A DNA stretch of 63,344 bases, counting the filler, from Atractiella rhizophila (taxonomy: Eukaryota), in the NCBI GenBank assembly GCA_021432655.1. It is 19 parts of 19 records of this genome, joined end to end, with 100 filler letters (N's around TTAATTAATTAA, not from the genome) between each part and the next. Parts side by side here need not be neighbours in the genome. Positions count along the whole stretch, not along the records: positions 27,088 to 30,331 come from MU272557.1; 18 more parts are not named here. One strand, written 5' to 3'. The translations under genes were made by a program, and so were the position numbers. Of this stretch, positions 371 to 59,189 are shown piece by piece (the first letter of the stretch is position 1; every line of letters begins with the position of its first letter). The notes beneath the pieces were generated by a model. That model was not told the DNA's origin, searched no databases, and worked only from the letters and a program-made list of their open reading frames with translations.

Positions 371-926
371 CTACAAGTGTAATCGCACCTTTTTCTCTTT
401 ATGTTTATACCACTTTATCACTCCTTTGTCCACCCCAACGTCAACAGTCCAGACTCTCCGGTCAGTGCTTCCCATTATCGTGTTTCCTCTAATCTCAATC
501 CCGTAAATCGGGCTGTCCTCCTTCCCTCTGTCCCACTTATCGCTTTCTTCCACCATAAAAGCGCTGATGCCTCCGGATGTCGCACGTACGTCCCATAAAC
601 CGACGAGGCCATTCCTCATGCCGCCAGCGACAACAGTTGTCCCCCAAGTGGAGACGCAATACCAAGCACTATCATTCCACCGGTCGTGAAGCGAGAGCAC
701 AGGAGCCTTCCCAGAACGCAAGTCGTATAATCGGACGTGGCCGTCGTACCAACCCGTTACGATAGTCGATGAAGGGTTGAGAGTCGAATGCGTCCGTGCA
801 GATGGAGCGGTGATGGAATAGCAGGCGGATTGAGCGGGTGCACTCAGAAACCTCGTTTCGTCAACCCGTCCTAGGCCAGAGGGGAGAATGGGATGCGCTA
901 GGAGACCGGTGCGCTTCGTGGCGCCA
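371..926 (-). CDS. F-box/WD40-repeat protein, C-terminal part
   Basis: Minus frame extends upstream of the listed ORF: GATKRTGLLAHPILPSGL...SACYSITAP...STIVTGWYDGHVRLYDLR...VVAGGMRNGLVGLWDVR...DSPIYGIEI, WD40-type LYD/LWD repeats; stop at 371. Confidence 0.75.
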
Positions 927-2584
927 CGTCGCTCAAAGAGTTCAACCGCTTACTCTTTGGCGTGCAAGACGAACAGACACATCGAGTCAGCACTGGGGTA
1001 ACGAACGACGTAACGAACGAAGTCTCTACCCTATTACCGCACATTCACGACACCTCTTTCGACAGTGCACCAAACAATGTTAATAAGCGCTGTAAACGGT
1101 GGTGGTCGGGACCGGTAAACTCGCCGTCTAAATCTCGACCGTCGACCGTCGACCGTCATATCTGCGTATGAACTCCTCGGCAGCGCAAGGAATGTAACAG
1201 ATAGGGCCTGTGGCTATTATCTTCGCAAAGCTCGAAGTTGACGACGAGTTGGGGGAGCTTCAGACGCTCGTTCAACAGTCTCTCAACCTCGATTCCAGAC
1301 TTTAGACTTCTTTAGCCAAGTTCCGATGTCGTTTGCACGATCGGTATCCCTTAATGCGCTTGAGAACGGTTGAACTTGCTGTAAAGGTTCTCGCTCAGTA
1401 GGTCGAGGTAGTTATATTTGAAGGTGGTGAGCTAGAGCTTAGCTTATGATAATATGGACGATCGTTTGAGCATCTTTCATTCACAAAGAGCCAACAACCC
1501 TCTGGGGTGACTGTTCGTTACCATCTATTTAATATACGTGATGTGCCAGTGCGTTGTCAGAGGAGGTCGACATCGGTGACTTGAACTTGCCTTTCATGTA
1601 GCTCTACCTTGCTGCCGAGTTCCAGCGCCTGCGCTGCAACTAAACGGTTGGAGTTCTCGTCGCGAGGATTGAGATGGCTATCTTGAAGGTAGTCGTTAGA
1701 GAGTATAGAGGGGCGTGCTCTGGAACCACAAGAGAGAGTCATAGTTGTTTCCAGTTACTCGACCAGCTCTGTATACCTACCTTTCTGTACCAGTTACCAC
1801 GCAGTAAAGATGGGCAGATGTTCATGTATAAACTACTTAACCAGTTCCTTAACCCGGACCCGCAGTTTTGTGTTGAGAACTGTGGGCGAGGAAGAGAAGG
1901 GTCGGCTCGACCTTCCTGTTTCACGCCAGCGTAGTGGTGAGGGTCGCGAGCGAGAGCTGGGTATCCAAAAGAAGGGAGGTTATAGAGGCAGTCGCGGGTG
2001 GAGCCCTCGCCCTTACAGGTAAAACGCTGAGCATCTTTTGTTGGAGAAACAGAGTAGACCTGCTTGGCACCTTCAAAAGAGTAATCTAAGCGTTCCTGCT
2101 AGGTTGTTCCAACATAGTACGGTTGACCGATTTCTACAGCAGCCAAACCGTGGGTAGGGTCGCCGACTAGGGAGGAGAAGTGTCTTTGTCTTCGTCTTCG
2201 TCTTAAACAGTGACGTCTGGCGGAACCTCTCTAAGCCGAGACCTTCTGGCAGTTAAGACGAGCTCCCGGGTTTCTAAGTTCCGCCCGCTGCTTAGAGCTT
2301 AGGGGTAGCTAGCCTAAGTTCGTAAGTTCGATAGGTACGGAGGAGCAGAGAGGAACGTTCGCAACGACGGAGGGCAAGCGCATGTGTGTAGTGGGTTGAC
2401 GGAAGGCAGGAGAGAAGGGTTGATAGAGCAAGAGTCTTAGCACGGGTTGTCTGAAGGAGCTTGTGCTCGATAAACTGATAGGTAAGGGACGCGAGTTGAC
2501 GGCGGTTTCGGGGAGGTCTTTGGGAGGGGAATCGAAGGTTTGGTACCCGACAGATGAATAGTGGTCTCGTCCGGTACAAAAACA
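927..2584. other. Reversed-but-not-complemented segment encoding the promoter and N-terminal part of the F-box/WD40 gene
   Basis: The plain complement read left to right gives a GTAAGT..CTGAC..TAG intron (1478-1525), ATG at 1535 (MHYTVTQQSPP...), F-box-like ALLTLPIEL/ISNLSYLPARDLGVLS/VSTKVNELVETYGWK, WD-like FVTADRLGEIRLWK, and ends GHVFV, joining GATKRTG at 926; several single-base frameshifts. Confidence 0.9.
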
Positions 2585-2624
2585 NNNNNNNNNNNNNNNN
2601 NNNNNNNNNCCATCCATCCATGCA

Positions 2625-3313
2625 TTAAAGCTCGTCATGTGAGTGCAGTGGCTCGTCGTCCCCAGATCCAGATCCTCCAGAAGAGTAGAGCTTGGAAGTG
2701 ATGGGCGAGACGACGGCTTGGAGAGCCTGGAGCTTCTCCTCGAAATCCGAAGCGGAGGCGGTCGCGCCATCCTCTTCCATCCAGTCTTGGACCTCTTTGA
2801 TCTCGTCCAAGATGGTCTGCTTATCTTCATCCTCAATCTTGCCACCGAGGGCTTCCTTATCCGTCACTTGTTGCTTGAGGGAGAAAACAAAGTTCTCGAG
2901 CTGCAATGAGGGTAGAAAATTAGCATCAAATGTTGGGGAAGAAAACAAGGACGTACCGCGTTACGCGACTCGACTTTCTTCTTAGCTTCCTCATCTGCCT
3001 CAGCAAATTCCTCCGCCTCCTGAATCATGCGATCAATCTCCTCTTGAGAAAGACGTCCCTCTGGGAACAATTGTCAGATCCATCCCACATCTCGACCAGG
3101 AGGAATACGGAAAGACGTACTGTCATTGGTGATGGTGATAGATTCGCTCTTGCCAGTTCCCTTATCCTGAGCGCTGATCTTCATGATACCGTTGGCGTCG
3201 ACTTCGAAAGTAACTTCGATTTGAGGAACGCCACGAGGAGCGGGGGGGATGCCGGTCAGCTCGAACTTGCCGAGGAGGTTGTTGTCCTTTGTCATCGATC
3301 GCTCTCCCTCGAA
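2625..3313 (-). CDS. KAR2: ER Hsp70 chaperone BiP/Kar2, 3' part (intron-containing)
   Basis: [55 protein letters not shown] and C-terminal HDEL* ER-retention signal. Confidence 0.95.
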
Positions 3314-3413
3314 NNNNNNNNNNNNNNNNNNNNNNNNNNNNNNNNNNNNNNNNNNNNTTAATTAATTAANNNNNNNNNNNNNNNNNNNNNNNNNNNNNNN
3401 NNNNNNNNNNNNN
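3314..3413. other. Artificial scaffold-joining spacer N44-TTAATTAATTAA-N44 (first of 18 in the window)
   Basis: The same 100-nt spacer with six-frame stops recurs about every 3.3 kb; intervening pieces decrease in length from ~3.3 kb to ~3.17 kb. Confidence 0.98.
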
Positions 3414-6912: not shown

Positions 6913-7028
6913 CTGAGGTTCATCTTTTCTTCGTTCTGTCACTCTGATGAACCTCAGGTAGGTGACTCCTCACCAACGTTCATGCAATGCTGATCTTTTC
7001 TTCGTTCTGTCACTCTGATGAACCTCAG
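6913..7028. repeat. 36-bp direct repeat pair with an overlapping 12-bp inverted repeat
   Basis: ATCTTTTCTTCGTTCTGTCACTCTGATGAACCTCAG at 6922-6957 and 6993-7028; CTGAGGTTCATC (6913-6924) pairs with GATGAACCTCAG (6946-6957). Confidence 0.85.
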
Positions 7029-8246: not shown

Positions 8247-10015
8247 ATGGACGCCTCAGCCTTCGGAAAGACTCCTAAGCCTTCTTCATCAAATCCCAGC
8301 GACCCTGAAGACCCTGGGAATTTGTCTGATGACGACCACGCATTCAGCGCCGATTCGCGAGAAGTTCCTCATTCTAATGAAGCCATCGGAGTTCAAAATC
8401 TTTCAGTATTGCAGCTGTACTCTCAACCTAGCCGTTTCCTCAGCAACAAACCGACAATTTTTGGCCCACAATTTCGCTTCTTATCGCGTACCGCATCGCC
8501 CGTTGCCTCCAGATCTGCTACCCCAATTCCTCTCTCATCCTCCAGCCCATCCCAAGTTCAAACCGTCAAGATTTTCAAAGTCCCCAACAATGTCAAGAGG
8601 ACGAATGAACAAGGACTCCGAATCCTTGCTATCGACAACGGCGGCATCTGTACCTTCTCCACGCTTTACATGCTTGAAGTCGTCATGCTTGAGGTTGGAA
8701 ATCTCCTCAACGTTCCCGATGGAGAAGAAACCAGGCCATGCGATGTTTTCGATCTCATCTGTGGCACGTCCACTGGCGGATGGATCGCCCTCACGCTTGG
8801 ACGGTTAGGAATGACTGTTCGACAATCCATCAGCGCGTACGAGCAAATCGTCCAGAATGTCTTTTCTGAAGGTCCACTTTCAACAGAAGGCTACACTTAC
8901 TCTGAGGAGAAACTCAAAGATGTCTTCCACAAGATCATTTCTGGACACTTTCCGTTGTCCACATCGACCTCTCAACTTCCTATGAAGGACGACGCGATCA
9001 AAGATAGATGCAGAACTTTTGTCATGTCAAGATACGAATCAAACGCAGTTGTTTCAACAGAGATGCGCACCTATGACGGCCTCAATGCAGTTCACTCTGC
9101 TGCTCGATGTACAGTGTTGGAAGCAGCAAGGGCAACTTCCTCTGCCCCTGAATTCTTTCCTCCTATCACCATCGACAAAGCAAGATATGTTGCCATTGGG
9201 AACAACAACCCAGCCGCAATAGCAATTGATGAGTCCAAGCGTATTTGGGGAGAAGGGAGCCAGATTGCCTGTCTCGTCTCTCTGGGGTCAGGGATTGCTC
9301 CAACTGTTAATTGGGGTCCTACCAAACGCGAGATTGAAGTCGCTGTGAAGGCAATCATCGAAGATTGTTCCCAGGTAGCAGATCAGTTGAAGATGAAGAT
9401 GCAGGATTGTGGTCTAGGGCATCGCTATCACCGCTTTTCAGTCCATACGATGGGAGGTGTCAAGTGGGAGGAGTGGGAGCGAACAAAGGATGTTGTGGGT
9501 CGGACAAAAGCCTATATGGAAGTAATGGGTCATGAAGCACGTAATGCTGCTCAATGTCTCGTGCAGGGTATGTTCTCTTACCTCTTGTGTAATACCACAT
9601 TGAGGTCCTTGTAGCGTTCAGTGAACGGATTGCAGTTCGTCAGCGCTTACCATTACCGCCTCCAGGCTCTTGCTTTGGCCGCAAAGATGAGATCCAACAC
9701 GCAAGAAAAGCTATACTTGAAGGACGCCACGTTACGATAGTGGGTGGAGCTGGAAATGGGAAATCCACTGTTGCACTCAACGCCGTGCACTGCGAAGAGA
9801 TCAAGCAGTCCTTCATAGATCTGGCATGGGGCTCTGGAGAAGATCTCCGCTTCTGGGTTCGCTGCGACAACTTTGACACCTTTGCCAAACTTTCGAATCA
9901 CATCTGCAACGATATCTTTGCACTGCCTAAGTCTAGCAAAACATCGCCAGAAGTTGTGGGAGATTACTTTGGAAGTCGAAAATGCCTTCTCATTTTGGAC
10001 AATTTTGAAACTCCC
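8247..10015 (+). CDS. Patatin-like phospholipase fused to a STAND P-loop NTPase (NLR-like), truncated by telomere
   Basis: LRILAIDNGG, FDLICGTSTGG (GxSxG), AARATSSAPEFF, LVSLGSG; intron 9568-9614 then CFGRKDEI, Walker A GGAGNGKST and Walker B LLILDNFETP. Confidence 0.88.
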
Positions 10016-10110
10016 TTAGGGTTAGGGTTAGGGTTAGGGTTAGGGTTAGGGTTAGGGTTAGGGTTAGGGTTAGGGTTAGGGTTAGGGTTAGGGTTAGGGT
10101 TAGGGTTAGG
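10016..10110 (+). repeat. Telomeric repeat (TTAGGG)15 plus TTAGG at scaffold end
   Basis: Perfect TTAGGG array running to the spacer, G-rich strand oriented outward as expected at a chromosome end. Confidence 0.97.
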
Positions 10111-10329
10111 NNNNNNNNNNNNNNNNNNNNNNNNNNNNNNNNNNNNNNNNNNNNTTAATTAATTAANNNNNNNNNNNNNNNNNNNNNNNNNNNNNNNNNN
10201 NNNNNNNNNNTCTCAGCATGTTCCTAACAGTATAGTCAAAAGCTGAAGTGGTTCTCCGAGGTACGAGGAGACCACTCAGCTTTCATTGTTTTTTGAAGAC
10301 AGTAGAGTACATATGGTGAGTCTGTGCTC

Positions 10330-26987: not shown

Positions 26988-27899
26988 NNNNNNNNNNNNN
27001 NNNNNNNNNNNNNNNNNNNNNNNNNNNNNNNTTAATTAATTAANNNNNNNNNNNNNNNNNNNNNNNNNNNNNNNNNNNNNNNNNNNNCGACAGGTCAGCC
27101 TCTAACACATCTCCATATGCGGACAGTACTCACATGATGATTTGGCACAAGTAAAAGAACATCCTGCTAGGCCCACTACGGTCGCTTTGGTGAAAGGGCA
27201 CTAAATGAGCTGGAAGCAGGAATCACTGATTCTGATTCACTGTTTCGCGCATCCGAGCGTCAGGACAGCCTGTACGAACGCAGTGTTCGCATGATGTACG
27301 CGCCATTGCGTTATCGGATATGAGTGATCTTTCAACAAGAATTGGACTCTGTCTGGCCCTCAAAACAGCCACTGTGAGGCAAATAAAAGAATAAGAGTGT
27401 TCTAAGGAGGTATTGTCACCACTGAGATTGAAGAGACACCAGAAAAGTACGTTTCCCACTTTTACAGCTGAGGGGTGGGACTTGTTGCGAGTTTTGGGTT
27501 GTTGAAGTTTCGGTGCGACTTTTTTGGCCAATTACGAGGTATAGAACAGCTTCTTGCTGCTCGAGCTTTTGTAAAAGTTATATGTTTAAAGACTTAGACT
27601 TCTTCGCCTCAAAAGATATTGGCATGAGTTCCGCCAGCCAACTCTCCCGATGTCAGCCAACCAAATGTGTACCAATGCAGGTTTCTGACAAAAGCGTGCG
27701 CACTGATATACCTACAATTTTCACATACATTCCAAAGCCGTGCGGTTCCAAGCTAAATATTCCACCTCTAACCTCTCGCTGGATGGTAACAGTACATCTG
27801 CTTCACCTTTAAATTGTGAAGTGGGAGTTTGGAGTCTCCGTTTGGGCTTTGATCTACAAGAACAGCACTGATATGGGGATACTCCACAGAATTTTTCCA

Positions 27900-29634
27900 A
27901 TGCCATCACCACGACCGCCGATTTCTGTGCGAGCCTTTCGGCGTTCCTTGCATCTCTCCTCAACGCTACGCAGTGGTAAACCCCTTCAACCTCCATCGTT
28001 TCCCTGCCTGGACCAACACGACGCGCGCACCGCCAAAATTCTTTCCAGTCGTCAACAGAACGCTCCGCTCGAGCCTGATGACGCAGGACAAGGTGACTAC
28101 GATTATTAGGAAGGATGCGCAAGTCCACTCTCTACTCGCGACCCGCTATGAGCTGTAAGGAGGGTACCTACTAGGGTGTCTACGTATATCAAAAAGTTGC
28201 GGATTAAGTAGATTTCCAACTTAACTCGGGCGTGTAATAGCTTATCTCTCTGGTCGCCCTTCGCGCTAGGCATAGAAACACTTCAATGGGGGGGTAGAGG
28301 GAAGGAGGCTCAGGAAGTTCCGAAGACCTTTACCTCTACTACCAGGCCACCTCGGTATCGTCGGCGGGCTCTTGCAACGTCGTCTATTGCTTCATGACTA
28401 GACACAGTTCTCGAAAGGGTCCAGGTTATTTGAAGAGGGTGGTAGGAAAGAGACCTAAGCGGAGACACGAAAACCGTACTGATCTACGACTTTCTGGTCA
28501 TACTTCCTCATACCGCAACGAGAACAGAAGTAACTCGCAAGGGGTGCAAAGCATCCGTTACCACATCAACCCATCTCCGTGCCTCCTCATCTGATCACCC
28601 TTTCCGAGTAATACACACATATACACTATCCTTCACCCTCTACCTCTCCTTATCTACCAAGTCCCGGGCGAAAGACGAACCCCAAGCCTTCCTCCTCACT
28701 TAAAAAGGGTTGTGCCTGCTGCCCGCTCTTTGGACTACACCTGNNNNNNNNNNNNNNNNNNNNNNNNNNNNNNNNNNNNNNNNNNNNNNNNNNNNNNNNN
28801 NNNNNNNNNNNNNNNNNNNNNNNNNNNNNNNNNNNNNNNNNNNNNNNNNNNNNNNNNNNNNNNNNNNNNNNNNNNNNNNNNNNNNNNNNNNNNNNNNNNN
28901 NNNNNNNNNNNNNNNNNNNNNNNNNNNNNNNNNNNNNNNNNNNNNNNNNNNNNNNNNNNNNNNNNNNNNNNNNNNNNNNNNNNNNNNNNNNNNNNNNNNN
29001 NNNNNNNNNNNNNNNNNNNNNNNNNNNNNNNNNNNNNNNNNNNNNNNNNNNNNNNNNNNNNNNNNNNNNNNNNNNNNNNNNNNNNNNNNNNNNNNNNNNN
29101 NNNNNNNNNNNNNNNNNNNNNNNNNNNNNNNNNNNNNNNNNNNNNNNNNNNNNNNNNNNNNNNNNNNNNNNNNNNNNNNNNNNNNNNNNNNNNNNNNNNN
29201 NNNNNNTTCGAAGGATTGCAAGAGCTTGAAACGTTGTGGAAAGGCAACAACCCCAACAAGAGCCTCTCCTTCTTGCCCCGCTCGACTTCCTCCGGAGGCG
29301 ATGGCGTACCGCATATTCCATTTTCGAAGTCACCCGCGTTCCTCTCATCCCTCACCGATGGAATGAGCAATCTTAAGGACATTCCCACTCTTGTCATTGG
29401 TGTCCAAAGCGACGTTCTCTTTCCTGTGGAACAACAGAGGGAATTGGCTCAAGCATTGAGAGGTTCTGGTAACAAATCTGTCGTCTATTATGAACTTGAT
29501 GGCCCATGGGGTCACGACACCTTCTTGTGAGCTTTGTGTCTCATGCACTTTGTGGAAATCTGATGGCCTCCCACAGGATCGATACTGCAAATGTTGGAGG
29601 GGCTATTCGTGGATTTTTGTCTCAGTCTCTGTGA
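27900..29634 (+). CDS. Serine O-acyltransferase (Cys2/CysA-like, homoserine O-acetyltransferase family); middle part reversed in the assembly and partly in an N gap
   Basis: Arg/Ser-rich mitochondrial-type presequence plus SFPCLDQHDAR (27900-28066); reversed 28743->28067 gives [45 protein letters not shown]; after the gap LVIGVQSDVLFP..GHDTFL/IDTANVGGAIRGFL..*. Confidence 0.9.
28067..28743. other. Second reversed-but-not-complemented segment (catalytic core of the Cys2-like gene)
   Basis: Reading the + strand right to left without complementing yields about 220 codons of alpha/beta-hydrolase-fold acyltransferase with a few 1-nt indels; abuts a 463-N internal gap. Confidence 0.95.
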
Positions 29635-29803
29635 TGCCGTGGCTCCTTGGAATAAACATGATCAATGTACTTGCTGAGACGTTCTGATGCGATGGAACTA
29701 GGGAGACGTAAGGTGAATATATGAACATTTTGATTATATTTTGTACAGGAAAGCGACATTTATATACACTTAAGAATTGAGTGCTTTCTTCTGGTTTACA
29801 ATG

Positions 29804-30331
29804 TTACATTGCCATTTCTTGCCCCTGGTTTGTTCGCGAAGCCGGGGACTGCTCGATGACCTCGTTTTGTTCCACGAAGCGCGACCTCTTGCGGATTTGC
29901 GGCCCATACCTCCAAATGAGGAACAGAAAAGGCATGAGGATCAATGTCAAGCCTAAGCCATGTTAATAAAATTTACCACACACTCCGATTGCAAATTGCT
30001 TACCGGCGAGGAGTGAACAACCTCCTTGGATGGTGAGGCCGGCATACATTTGTCGGCCGACGAGTGGGAAGGCTGCGCCTAAAGCGCTTCGAAAGAAGGC
30101 GTTGCCGGCCAAAACGGATGCAGCGTAGCTGGGATAGCTTGCTGGAAGGTATGTGCAAACTGAGTTGAACAGGCAGAACATCCCTACACAATTTCGATTC
30201 AGATTTATAGATAGGGAAGCAAGAGTCCCTGTTTACCTGGAACATATAGACCTGAATGGAAATCTGTCAGTACTCGATGCCACACCAACTGAGATGAACG
30301 GACCTGCAGCGATCGTGGGAACAATCCAGTG
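29804..30331 (-). CDS. MFS multidrug transporter (DHA1-like), 3' part
   Basis: HWIVPTIA..YLPASYPSYAASVLAGNAFFRSALGAAFPL..GGCSLLA/..MPFLFLIWRYGPQIRKRSRF. Confidence 0.85.
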
Positions 30332-36990: not shown

Positions 36991-37296
36991 NNNNNNNNNN
37001 NNNNNNNNNNNNNNNNNNNNNNNNNNNNNNNNNNTTAATTAATTAANNNNNNNNNNNNNNNNNNNNNNNNNNNNNNNNNNNNNNNNNNNNGAAGGAAGGA
37101 AATCGCTCTTTGGTGAGAGTGAATAAACACGAACAAACACGGAAATGTAAGGTACTGCAGGTTGGTTGGCGGTTTCACGCCGTGTTGAATGAACTGGGAT
37201 CATCTCAAGGGTCCCGGTCTCAAGTAGAGGCGGACGGATCGTCCGGAGCCTATAGATTTAGGTTCCAGACAGAGTATTGTCTTCCGTGTGTGAGTA

Positions 37297-37422
37297 GTAC
37301 TCATGAGGACAAGGGTACCTGTGTCAAAGGTCACAACAAGTTACAAATCAGGCTCTAAGCTGATCGATACTCATGAGTAAGGGTACCACCGTACTCACGA
37401 GTACTACTCGTTGGCATCTCTA
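37297..37422 (-). mobile_element. Probable hAT-type transposon terminus with subterminal repeats
   Basis: Reverse complement begins TAGAGATGCCAACGAGTAGTACTCGTGAGTAC; repeated GTACTCA(T/C)GAG and AAGGGTACC motifs inside. Confidence 0.5.
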
Positions 37423-40408
37423 TTAAAAAGCAGACTTAAAAATCACCATTGTTTTGAGGGTCTTTTCTTCAACTTTAATAAGGCTTAAATTATTACAGCC
37501 TTGGCCCTTTAAGCCAACACTGGTTGGCTTGGTTTGTTAACCCCAGAGGGGTTATGGACAAGGGATTTTTTTTTCAACAATCTTCCGGTTCAGATCCATT
37601 TTTTTCTTCACCTTGCTGGATCCGACAGGTCTTATAGAGTGTTTGGGGATGGCAAGGTGCTTTTAAACCTCATTCACCCCCACATTTTGAATTTTGGCCA
37701 CACTGTCTGACTGGGATTTTTATGGTACTCAGCATCCGATGAGACTTGACAGGGCTTTCGAAGCCAACAATTTAGGTCTTGATGGGGAAGGAATGAGCCA
37801 AGGAACTCCTGGCTCTGCCCCTTTTGCAGCTAACATGTGACCCCTCCGCCATCGCTAGAGGTGGTGTGGTCATCAGACCACCTGGGACATAGCACTGGAG
37901 GCTTGGAGTGTGGACTGAAGTTGCGCTATCATCTGTGTGCCCATATTTCCCAGCGATTGTTATAGTTATTGCATGCTATGCAGGGAGCGAAAACCAAAAC
38001 AAGACTTAAACCTCCGATTCTTCGCCTTACGACAATCCACCTCCGTCTTAACAAACCCTGGCTTGGTCGTTTACTGCTTTCGTCTACGTGTACATGTTCC
38101 ATTACTGACCCAACAGCTACACCCCAATATCAACTCTGACAAACGGAATTTAGGAGAGCGCTGTCTTTGAGGTTTTCACATGTTTTCCCACAGGAAACAA
38201 CACAACGCGATTGGATCGTTCCTACCGAACCGTTCACCTCTGATCTTACAAGAAATAAGATGCTTCCTGATGACTGCAGGGCGTTTGTCTTTTCATCCTA
38301 TTAGCCTGAAGGGAAAGAGGGAGTGAAGCCACTGCACCACTCACATTTGTTCTCCATGTCAAACCTTTGACAGATGCAACTAAGAGTTAATGAAAGGACG
38401 TTAATGAAGCTGTTAGCAACGCACGCTTGACCTACCTCCGGTGTGAACAAAAAGGCAACGAAGCAGATAATGAGGTCAGGAGCAGAGTATTGAGCTTACC
38501 TCTCAGCCAGAGTAAGCCATCTCTAGTTGTCGGAAAGTATTCTGTGCCATACTGGTCAAATACTCGTCGATATGAGCCTTCACAAAAGGGATGAGTTGGC
38601 GTCAAATTGCGTTATAACCACCTTACCAGCAGGAAAGACTTTGAGGAAACCGTTATAATGAATTCAAAGAGTTGTCAGCTGCCTACCGATCAAAATGTCC
38701 TCAGCTGAACTACATCCGTGACGGTTTTTAAAGTCTTCGAGAGAATACAACTTGCCCATCCATGTTTTCCAGATATAGACTTCGTCCGTCTCGTTCATCC
38801 TCTCGCAAGACGTTTCCAACATGTAGTAAGGGGGGTAGGCTAAAGCTTATGACAGCTGCCTTTTATCTGGCTCATGCAGTTTATCCGTGTGAAACCGTCA
38901 CATGGCGTCACGATCTGTGGTCAATTGACATTCAGCGCATCACATCCATCGTTGCCCAACCCGTGTCGGTAAATTTCTACAATCTTTGTCCACATTGATG
39001 AAGGATGAAGAATACAGGGAATAGGTCTCCTAGTTACAGCGTGGCTCCATCTACAATTTCCTCACAGCAAGGCTAGCTCATAGTTGCGATCACGATGTTC
39101 CTTGAAGTAGTAGGGGCGGGTCTGCTCTAGGTGCTCCAATAAATGGATCAGCACAAGAACAATGTTGCAATGGGTGAATATGAAATGCGTTGAGACACAA
39201 CGAAGCGGTACAAACTTCAGTAGACACAACGAAAGTGATCCCCAAATTGACGACTGAAAGCATCATCACTTCCGGCGAAGCTTGTTCGATTCGCTCTTCG
39301 ACCCATCCACATCCACTTCCTCTATTGTCTTTCTTTTTGTTGTTGGCACTAAAACCTTGTCGATAAGGTTCCGTTTGTTGTTCACCATCGCTTTCAATTC
39401 ACCCTCCCGACAATGTACGACATTCTCTAAGACCCATATCAGACATCTCAACAGTTGCATTTCCGCTCCGACGAATAGTTCATCATCCAAGATACTCCTT
39501 GTCGGATCAGATTCGCCAAAGATGGTCTCCAATTCCTCCGATGGAATTCCTAGCGTTTCGCAAAGTTGGGTTACCAGAGCGCCGCGACGCCCGGCAAAAT
39601 AACCCCACATATCTTCATCGACGTAACGAGCGTTAATGCTGCTGGAGGGGCGGTTACGGAGCTTGTTTGGGCTGCTCAAGTTGGTCGACATCATGTCGAG
39701 CCGTTGTTGAGCATACCCGTCACCCAAGGAGTCGGAGACCGTCGGTGTTAAAACTGGTCGAAAACTGGTTGACCAGTTTTGTGCTGCGGGGAAACTGGTC
39801 GATGTCGGGCGCACCACGTGCCCGAGGCCACAAACATGGCCAAATCTTCCTTCGAAATGGAATGAGGAAAAGAAGGAAGATGGACGGACCCACAAACCGC
39901 AAGCAACGGCGGAGGAAAGGACTGTTATACAAGTCCTTCCTCCTTCTTCCATCTACCCATCCGCCACCCTTTCCTTCCCCATCTTCTCATCCACCTAGCT
40001 TCCTCCGACATCCTCTATTCTCTGATATGTGGGTGTGCTTCTGCAGCATGGCGAAAAGGTGCGCCTCTCTTGTTACTTCTCATTCCTTTCCTCTTTGCAT
40101 GAATGTTGTACTAATAATTATCTCCCAGCATTTTTCTGTTTCCGCTTGCTTCTCACCTTCCATCCACCAGCTTCCACGGCCACTACTCTCTCATGCCCCA
40201 CCCCTCCTCATCCCATCCACTCTGTCCCACCCTTCACGCCTTCTCCCAGCAGAGTACCAGCTCATTGGACCTTATTCAATCGTCATGTCTGCGCTTTCCT
40301 CCAACATCNNNNNNNNNNNNNNNNNNNNNNNNNNNNNNNNNNNNNNNNNNNNTTAATTAATTAANNNNNNNNNNNNNNNNNNNNNNNNNNNNNNNNNNNN
40401 NNNNNNNN

Positions 40409-56897: not shown

Positions 56898-59189
56898 ACC
56901 TGCCGCTCAGCTGTCACCAAGGCTCTATCCGACAACTGGTTTCGATGTCATACCGCCTTCCGAGTTAGTAGAGGAAGAAACCCTACCTTCGTACGTTGTG
57001 GCTGGCTATTATCCCGCTCGGCTTGGAGAAGTCCTCGACTCGCGCTTCCAAATTGTTGGAAAACTTGGTTACGGCGTTACCTCGACCGTTTGGATGTGCC
57101 GAGATCTCACGTAGGGATTATATATCCACTATAACCTATGGTATGCGGTTTACTGTTCCTGGGGCACAGATTTACAACGACGCCTACTTATCGTGCAGTC
57201 AAAATTTACACGAGAGACGCATCCCGAAGGAAGAATAGAGAAGTTCCTGCTTTGCACCATCTCGCATCCATTCAAAGTGATGACGTTGGAAAAATTGGCA
57301 TAAGATTCATGACGGAACAGTTTTCGATACCTGTTGGCGAAGCAGAGCACACTTGTCTTGTCCATCGTCCCTTGGGTACGAGTATTCAGGATCTGTGCGA
57401 CCTTTCGCAAGAAGGCAATGGTGACTTGCCTGTTATTTTCCTGAAAGCTCTATCAATGCGAATGCTGCATGCCTTGAACTTTCTTCATTCTGAAGCTCGG
57501 CTAATACATACTGGTTCGTCTTTCTCTCCATTTTGCCCCATGGTGATCTGACACCATCATCGACATTCACAACAGATTTACAGCCGAAGAACATCCTTTG
57601 TAGGGTCGAAGATCCAGCCCTCCTTGAAGCGTATGAAGAGGAAGAGTTCCAAGATATGCCAACTCCTCGAAAGATCGACGGAGATCGTATTATCTATCGT
57701 TCTCGGCCTCTTCGTCTGTCACTAGGACTGCCAGTGCTCGTTGATTACGGTGAAGTGCGTTTCGCAGATCAAGGACCTTTCTCGGAGGACATCATGCCTA
57801 TCATGTATCGCGCTCCTGAGTTACTGCTATGGATACCATGGAGCTATAAAGTCGACATTTGGGACCAAATTGTTGGAAAACTTGGTTACGGCGTTACCTC
57901 GACCGTTTGGATGTGCCGAGATCTCACGTAGGGATTATATATCCACTATAACCTATGGTATGCGGTTTACTGTTCCTGGGGCACAGATTTACAACGACGC
58001 CTACTTATCGTGCAGTCAAAATTTACACGAGGGACGCATCCCGAAGGAAGAATAGAGAAGTTCCTGCTTTGCACCATCTCGCATCCATTCAAAGTGATGA
58101 CGTTGGAAAAATTGGCATAAGATTCATGACGGAGCGGTTTTCGATACCGGCTGGCGAAGCAGAGCACACGTGTCTTGTCCATCGTCCCTTGGGTACGAGT
58201 ATTCAGGATCTGTGCGACCTTTCGCAAGCAGGCAATGAGGACTTGCCTGTTATTTTCCTGAAAGCTCTATCAATGCGAATGCTGCATGCCTTGAACTTTC
58301 TTCATTCTGAAGCTCGGCTAATACATACTGGCTCGTCTTTCTCTCCATTTTGCCCGATGGTGATCTGACACCATCATCGACATTCACAACAGATTTACAG
58401 CCGAAGAACATCCTTTGTAGGGTCGAAGATCCAGCCCTCCTTGAAGCGTATGAAGAGGAAGAGTTCCAAGATATGCCAACTCCTCGAAAGATCGACGGAG
58501 ATCGTATTATCTATCGTTCTCGGCCTCTTCGTCTGTCACTAGGACTGCCAGTGCTCGTTGATTACGGTGAAGTGCGTTTCGCAGATCAAGGACCTTTCTC
58601 GGAGGACATCATGCCTATCATGTATCGCGCTCCTGAGTTACTGCTATGGATACCATGGAGCTATAAAGTCGACATTTGGGGATTAGGCATGACGGTACGC
58701 ATCTGATTCGCAATTTGATGTAACAGCCTTCAATAAATGGTTCCGGTGCACAGATCTGGACTGCCGCACAGAAGGGAAACCTTTTTCGAGGGTGGGAAAG
58801 GGATGGATACCACAACTGGCGACATCTTTCGGAGATGTTGGCACTGCTAGGGCCACCTCCAAAGGCTGTTCTCGAACGCGGACAGTTTAGCAACATTTTT
58901 TTTGACGAAGATGGTTTGTATTCTCTTCGACCCTCCTGTTTATGTCTGATTCCTCGTGTTAGGGAATTGGAAAGGCGAGGCAATTGGCATCAGTGTCCCA
59001 GCCATGTCGCTAGAGGAAAGGGCAACAGTCCTGGAAGGGGTGAACAAACGGCGGTTTCTGAATTTCATTCGCAGATGTTTGCAGTGGAATCCAGATGCAA
59101 GACCAACAGCGAAGGAGTTATTGGAGGATGAGTGGATCACATCTGCGAAAGAGGATGTGAAAACTGGAGCTGAGTCGTCGTCAGAGTGA
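56898..59189 (+). CDS. SRPK/Sky1-like CMGC Ser/Thr kinase with internal tandem duplication, 5' truncated
   Basis: EEETLPSY..YYPARLGEVLDSRFQIVGKLGYGVTSTVW, AVKIY, HTDLQPKNIL, DYGE, YRAPE, KVDIW, HLSEMLALLGPPP, RPTAKELLEDEW. Confidence 0.9.
57048..58681 (+). repeat. 817-bp near-perfect tandem duplication (57048-57864 / 57865-58681)
   Basis: Both copies start CCAAATTGTTGGAAAACTTGG and end GTCGACATTTGGG; roughly ten substitutions seen and no indels. Confidence 0.97.

Follow-up and report, generated by a model that had tools for sequence, protein, structure and literature searches.

A block written in reversed, uncomplemented letter order hides part of a predicted MetX-family acyltransferase gene of Atractiella rhizophila

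Ordinary mis-orientation errors in draft assemblies leave a gap-adjacent segment in the wrong direction and a broken gene model, and the locus described here is alike in both respects. It differs from them in that the letters of the segment are reversed without being complemented, and aligners and six-frame searches are blind to it. A real inversion yields the reverse complement of the original sequence, and we know of no biological process that makes a reversed, uncomplemented copy still encoding its protein backwards. A literature phrase search for reports of a reversed, uncomplemented assembly artefact, judged by titles, showed no relevant one among the 20 listed of 31 matching papers.

The gene at this locus is predicted to belong to the MetX family of alpha/beta-hydrolase acyltransferases, whose structures contain a catalytic triad of Ser, Asp and His. 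The residue description of the MetX G3c / Cys2 enzymes reportedly goes back to Bastard et al. 2017, and CysA of Aspergillus nidulans is said, by Grynberg et al. 2000, to be a serine O-acetyltransferase homologous to homoserine O-acetyltransferases. One study states that serine O-succinyltransferase activity in MetX group G3 requires a G-L-S-A/P motif (positions 52-55, Xanthomonas campestris numbering), a Ser-Leu/Met nucleophile, Arg183 (F. aurantia numbering) and Asp360 (X. campestris numbering), and that Ser-Tyr at the nucleophile would mark homoserine specificity (PMC9506716).

The window, that is, the whole 63,344-base stretch of DNA that was analysed, consists of 19 small scaffolds joined by 18 linkers of the form N44-TTAATTAATTAA-N44. 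The scaffolds are ordered by length, the first having 3,313 bases and the last about 3,170, and the window is an artificial concatenation, not a contiguous piece of a chromosome. The first linker lies at window 3314-3413, and 17 further sites follow approximately every 3.3 kb. The linker is a six-frame stop spacer, as is typical of pseudo-records made from "unplaced scaffolds". Real gaps number only two, one of 25 N in the first scaffold and one of 463 N in the scaffold carrying the acyltransferase gene (27088-30331). The best protein matches are to basidiomycete fungi, with 55-73% identity. TTAGGG repeats at 10007-10110 extend to the right-hand terminus of the third scaffold, in the orientation that is correct for a telomere. 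A head-to-tail duplication of 816 nt with 98.65% identity (57048-57863 and 57865-58680, one base between) reflects either a true tandem duplication or the assembly of two alleles one after the other, and an exact 36-nt direct repeat was found at 6922-6957 and 6993-7028, 71 nt apart.

Full-length relatives of the gene were obtained with the normally written C-terminal exon as the query, which gave 116 hits, all MetX-like and mostly basidiomycete. When 11 full-length homologues were searched against the scaffold as written (tblastn), they matched only 27966-28079 and 27996-28061 at the N-terminus and 29216-29631 at the C-terminus. The sole match touching the block was the weak one at 27966-28079, which runs 13 nt past its border; apart from this overrun, the six ordinary frames of the block had no homology to the 11 proteins. 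On the mirror of the scaffold, in contrast, all 11 homologues matched 28722->28067 with E values of 1e-40 to 1e-50, and the reversed block, 677 bases in length, encodes residues ~66-300 of basidiomycete MetX-family acyltransferases. The peptides that had been quoted in a sequence-only reading of this DNA (GPEPS and 99 further residues) were all present after uncomplemented reversal, spread across three frames. The residues of the homologues follow one another in the order N-terminus (27966-28066), block (28743->28067), gap and C-terminus (29207-29634), colinear once the block is flipped, which indicates that the block is correctly placed but written backwards. The earlier proposal that the flipped block aligns to the acyltransferase family and fits between a normal N-terminus and a post-gap C-terminus was thus borne out. 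No true-orientation copy of either mirrored block of the window, such as a haplotig, was found elsewhere within the window. The features of both loci are listed in Table 1.

Table 1. Coordinates of the features at the two gapped scaffolds, in positions of the window.
Feature	Position	Strand	Details and evidence
Other mirrored block	897..2584	.	Left of 25-N gap; Markov score, homology
25-N gap	2585..2609	.	Only other real internal gap of the window
5' untranslated exon	27328..27446	+	Spliced RNA-like contig X3 record 18: 27328-27446 joined to 27890-28067
5' UTR intron, 443 nt, GT..AG	27447..27889	+	Joint 27446->27890 in X3 and X4 contigs; ends GTACGT..CCACAG
N-terminal coding part, written normally, MPSPRPP...SFPCLDQHDARTAKIL...	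27900..28066	+	Translation; alignment to P0005, P0076, P0006
Mirrored block	28067..28743	.	True + strand letters in reverse order, uncomplemented; translation, homology, public contigs, Markov score
Nucleophile Ser codon in GSSMGG	28167..28169	.	TCC read 28169->28167
G-L-S-A motif	28486..28497	.	GGT CTT TCA GCA read 28497->28486
Gap, 463 N	28744..29206	.	Hides about 115-125 residues
C-terminal exon, written normally	29207..29526	+	Homology; public contigs fit from 29207
Predicted catalytic Asp codon, QSDVLFP	29411-29413	+	Alignment to P0006 and solved MetX chains
Predicted catalytic His codon, WGHDTF	29513-29515	+	Alignment to P0006 and solved MetX chains
Intron, 50 nt, GT..AG	29527..29576	+	Joint 29526->29577 in X3; ends GTGAGC..CCACAG
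Last exon, ..IDTANVGGAIRGFLSQSL, TGA stop 29632-29634	29577..29634	+	Translation, homologue alignment

Contigs of four public runs (X1-X4) were compared with the scaffold at 27088-30331. X1 and X2, which come from one sample, contain 83% of the sampled words of 27088-28066, and X3 and X4 contain fewer. Depth was 0 over 28069-29158 in all four runs, and none of them covers the block as written. Contigs of three of the four runs (X1, X2 and X3) match the window up to 28067 and then carry 74-86 letters that do not fit, and the X4 piece ends at 28024. When 30 of 86 loose letters were compared, they equalled the mirror 28742->28712 except for one extra C in the window: 20 letters were identical, CCC in the window stood against CC in the contig, and 10 further letters were identical. 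The true junction is 28066|28743, with zero bases lost or doubled. The left border of the block, 28066|28067, is the point where the public contigs depart from the window, and its right end, 28743, is the final base ahead of the 463-N gap. Base 28067 matches the contigs because it is by chance a G, as is 28743, and this identity leaves a one-base ambiguity at the left border. The coordinates proposed from the sequence proved exact at both ends. The public contigs running into the mirror, together with the tblastn matches to it, confirm that part of a MetX-family gene is hidden by the block. A real genomic inversion or rearrangement that interrupts the gene in the organism would account for the break at 28066|28067 and for a block adjoining a gap, where rearrangements assemble poorly. 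However, the homology lies in the uncomplemented mirror and is absent from the ordinary six frames, and the public contigs of three runs are colinear over the border; because an inversion is expected to give a reverse complement, we consider this explanation extremely improbable.

The same contigs also provided a measure of the agreement around the block. There were 0 differences between X1 record 2 and window 27691-28067, and likewise 0 between the public contigs and 29207-29367. The X1 contig had four single-base differences over 27088-27670, and the X2 contig had the same four together with a fifth and a deletion of 1 nt at 27690. The public runs may represent another strain, in which case the indel in the block could be genuine. 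Over 29583-30095, contigs of X1 and X2 fall into two classes, one with 0-1 differences from the window and the other with 12-26, which suggests two haplotypes in that sample. Further downstream, the X3 contig skips 52 nt and 115 nt (29953-30006 and 30185-30301) with non-canonical ends (TA..CG and AC..CG) and with replacement letters; these skips are probably strain indel differences downstream of the gene and not introns.

A Markov model trained on both strands was used to score sequence against its own mirror, with both blocks excluded from training for the block scores. The forward-minus-mirror score of block 28067-28743 was -18.4 (k=3), equal to -27.2 per kb, and its flanks scored +20.7 on the left (+21.1 per kb) and +37.3 for the right contig (+33.2 per kb). 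The 458 control windows of 677 nt had a mean of +18.4 (sd 7.2) and a minimum of +0.6, none being negative, which places the block about 5 sd under the controls. Block 897-2584 scored -37.8 against controls of +45.9 (sd 12.8, n=272), again with no negatives. Since mirroring reverses the sign of the score, any control window would have been caught had it been mirrored. Among 300-nt windows (n=1106; k=2, 3 and 4), those more than 2.5 sd below the mean were confined to 851-2550 and 27938-28587, with the exception of window 37241-37540, which fell below this limit at k=2 and 3 only. Scores of +18 to +44 per kb were obtained for the 19 contigs without a mirrored block (17 gap-free scaffolds and two right-hand contigs); those holding the two blocks scored -3.5 and +1.3 per kb overall. 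Weakly negative segments at 10007-10310, 37249-37540, 37959-38121 and others (scores <=7.4) were set aside as background or low complexity; segment 10007-10310 spans the TTAGGG repeats and a linker, and its score is spurious because of the low complexity of these repeats.

These scores also bear on the possibility that the acyltransferase likeness of the backwards reading is due to chance. Reading 12 frames doubles the search space, and nothing else speaks for it, whereas 11 of 11 homologues matched at the E values given above and colinear with the flanks, the Markov score departed from the controls in the direction of a mirrored sequence, and the public contigs equal the mirror. We regard a chance likeness as vanishingly improbable, even more so than an inversion.

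The sequence-only reading had also claimed that both internal gaps have a reversed block on the left and normal sequence on the right, and this arrangement was found at two of two gaps by Markov score and homology. In the first scaffold, homology narrows the left border of block 897-2584 to a frame-preserving position in 895-928 and the Markov segment begins at 897; the border lies somewhere within 895-930. A normal minus-strand ORF running 895->374 has 531 relatives, which are WD40/WDR55-like; the N-terminal half of this WD40-like gene lies in the block and the remainder in the normal sequence. The relative P0126 aligns through its residues 1-177 to the mirrored block (the complement of window 2014->2565) and through residues 164-360 to the normal sequence, and flipping the block at any frame-preserving border from 895 to 928 yields one HSP that spans P0126 residues 1-360. 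The WD40/WDR55-like gene is thus made up of 374-895 (minus strand, normal) and ~2014-2584 (mirrored), the mirrored half being readable only as a left-to-right complement. To the right of the 25-N gap, the C-terminal part of an Hsp70 gene is written normally on the minus strand at 2628-3313; the fragment ends in HDEL, is of the ER type, BiP/Kar2-like, and contains at least one intron.

The quality of the acyltransferase block was also considered. Judged against the homologues, the 677 nt change frame at least five times once flipped, and three of these inferred changes coincide with homopolymer runs (GGG, G7 and TTT). The sites lie after ..AGPEP, within NVLG|GCYG (GGG), before RYGSRFP (G7), within RAQFNL|LDELG (TTT) and after GGMSSIA. 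Together with the extra C, the one indel against the public contigs in the first 30 nt, these frame changes indicate many small indels in the block. Frame breaks and an indel here, as opposed to 0 differences in the flanks, suggest that the block was derived from a poorer source than its flanks, for instance an extension into the gap at low coverage. Decay of the gene is a less likely reading, given its intact flanks and the spliced RNA-like contigs that cover it.

Overall, the block is almost certainly an artefact of assembly or file building, in which a true piece of the genome was reversed without complementing, and not a biological feature. The reversal is in place: the substring ends exactly at the gap, starts inside the contig and abuts perfectly. 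A program that builds scaffolds or closes gaps would have written the piece in reversed letter order, uncomplemented, which is equivalent to complementing a minus-strand piece without reversing it. We infer a string-handling bug in a gap-aware step, in which either an extension may have been appended backwards or a minus-oriented piece may have been complemented but left unreversed; the two appear about equally likely. As the left border lies inside the contig, away from the gap, mis-orientation of a whole contig would need an extra assumption. The reversal might instead have been added after assembly, during concatenation or reformatting into the record, or planted as a test, in which case the contig records would be correct. 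The joining of 19 scaffolds with six-frame-stop linkers implies at least one extra string-handling step, but only the two gapped scaffolds are hit, and only to the left of the gap, which points to a gap-aware step, and the lower base quality of the block relative to its flanks would be left unexplained by later reformatting; we consider this origin very unlikely, if less so than an inversion. Returning to an error during assembly, the same bug appears to have acted at the other gap of the window and, therefore, probably elsewhere in the assembly too.

It is an evenly balanced question whether one string-handling bug struck to the left of many or all internal gaps in this assembly, and perhaps in others produced by the same pipeline. 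If it did, hundreds of kilobases of real sequence would be unreadable by aligners and gene finders, and apparent gene losses, for example a missing Cys2-type cysteine pathway, would be artefacts. Were the error general, gene catalogues and presence/absence calls for Atractiella rhizophila would be biased. A mirrored block escapes BLAST, read mapping and six-frame gene finders and resembles unique non-coding DNA. Both scaffolds of the window that contain a gap have a gene broken in this way, one for a Cys2-like acyltransferase and one for a WD40-like protein. The forward-versus-mirror k-mer score, which is cheap and told 458 of 458 controls of 677 nt from their own mirrors, could be used to screen whole assemblies. 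The value of the finding lies in curation and data quality, and its biological interest is low.

With the block flipped, the structure of the gene could be followed from the untranslated exon to the stop codon. The spliced form has an in-frame TAA upstream of the ATG at 27900 with no intervening ATG; therefore, the start that had been proposed at 27900 stands, also upheld by the spliced contigs, and the first intron lies in the 5' UTR. On the other side of the block, the true end of the block aligns to residue 289 of homologue P0006. Ahead of 29207, the public contigs carry 33 additional letters; their translation, ..SKAMDLFDMS, corresponds to P0006 residues ~404-413. The distance between these two points gives the number of hidden residues listed in Table 1, consistent with the 463 N of the gap.

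The mirror and the normal flanks align to homologue residues ~40-300 and ~415-529. Membership in the MetX family was assessed by proxy: all four full-length homologues examined exceeded the cutoff of the NCBIfam MetX family NF001209 (363-399 vs 331 bits), and Pfam analysis of the normal N- and C-terminal pieces alone gave sub-threshold alpha/beta-hydrolase matches only. The GSSMGG elbow aligns with GSSMGG of P0006 and with G-x-S-M-G-G of solved MetX enzymes, and by alignment to P0006 and solved MetX chains the Ser-Asp-His triad is complete in the gene, with Ser in the mirror and Asp and His in normal sequence. The earlier description of the block as the catalytic core is therefore true of the nucleophile Ser and the specificity motif, but Asp and His stand in the normal sequence after the gap.

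The motifs of the mirror also bear on the substrate. GLS[A/P] was present in 177 of 180 full-length homologues, the other three having GLSG, and a pattern search for the H-A-[LI]-[ST]-G form, as in 2pl5, 2b61 and 6pux, found it in 0 of the 180. At the motif position, PDB alignments show ALSG or ALTG, and no G-L-S-A, in 2pl5, 2b61 and 6pux, all of them homoserine acetyltransferases. The Ser-Met in GSSMGG is of the Cys2 type but non-discriminating, as the homoserine acetyltransferase 2pl5 also has S-M. Among the homologues, whose names are annotators' labels and not tests of activity, P0272, P0285, P0287, P0289 and P0083 are called "Serine O-succinyltransferase", P0307 and P0319 "CYS2", and P0280 "putative serine-O-acetyltransferase cys2"; many others bear the generic name "homoserine acetyltransferase". 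A Cys2/CysA-like enzyme, as in the earlier reading, is favoured over a plain Met2 by the GLSA read 28497->28486, its prevalence among the homologues and some of the annotators' names, and is the better-supported reading of the gene. The gene is predicted to encode a serine-acylating alpha/beta-hydrolase acyltransferase of the MetX family (Cys2 / MetX-G3c type), its putative acyl donor and substrate being deduced from sequence. An enzyme of this type would supply O-acyl-serine for cysteine synthesis.

Among the systems described, the predicted enzyme is closest in type to the Cys2-type serine O-succinyltransferases (MetX G3c, S. pombe Cys2), with which it has in common the MetX alpha/beta-hydrolase family, G-L-S-A and a Ser-Met nucleophile (PMC9506716). 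The likeness to S. pombe Cys2 is one of motifs and annotators' names, and about 115-125 residues of the present enzyme lie inside the gap. CysA of A. nidulans, which the sequence-only reading had also proposed for comparison, is described as another MetX-family enzyme of fungi that uses serine in the synthesis of cysteine. The best solved relative of homologue P0006 is PDB 3vvl (E 7e-78), in which the motif reads G-L-S-P; in its variant 3vvm the corresponding residues are A-L-S-G, like those of 2pl5, 2b61 and 6pux. Although deposited as "Homoserine O-acetyltransferase", 3vvl is presumably DcsE, the serine-acetylating enzyme of the D-cycloserine pathway. This bacterial protein has 394 residues and lacks both the N-terminal extension of ~100 residues and the insertion that are present in the fungal proteins. 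The predicted enzyme itself is unremarkable within a family that is already known.
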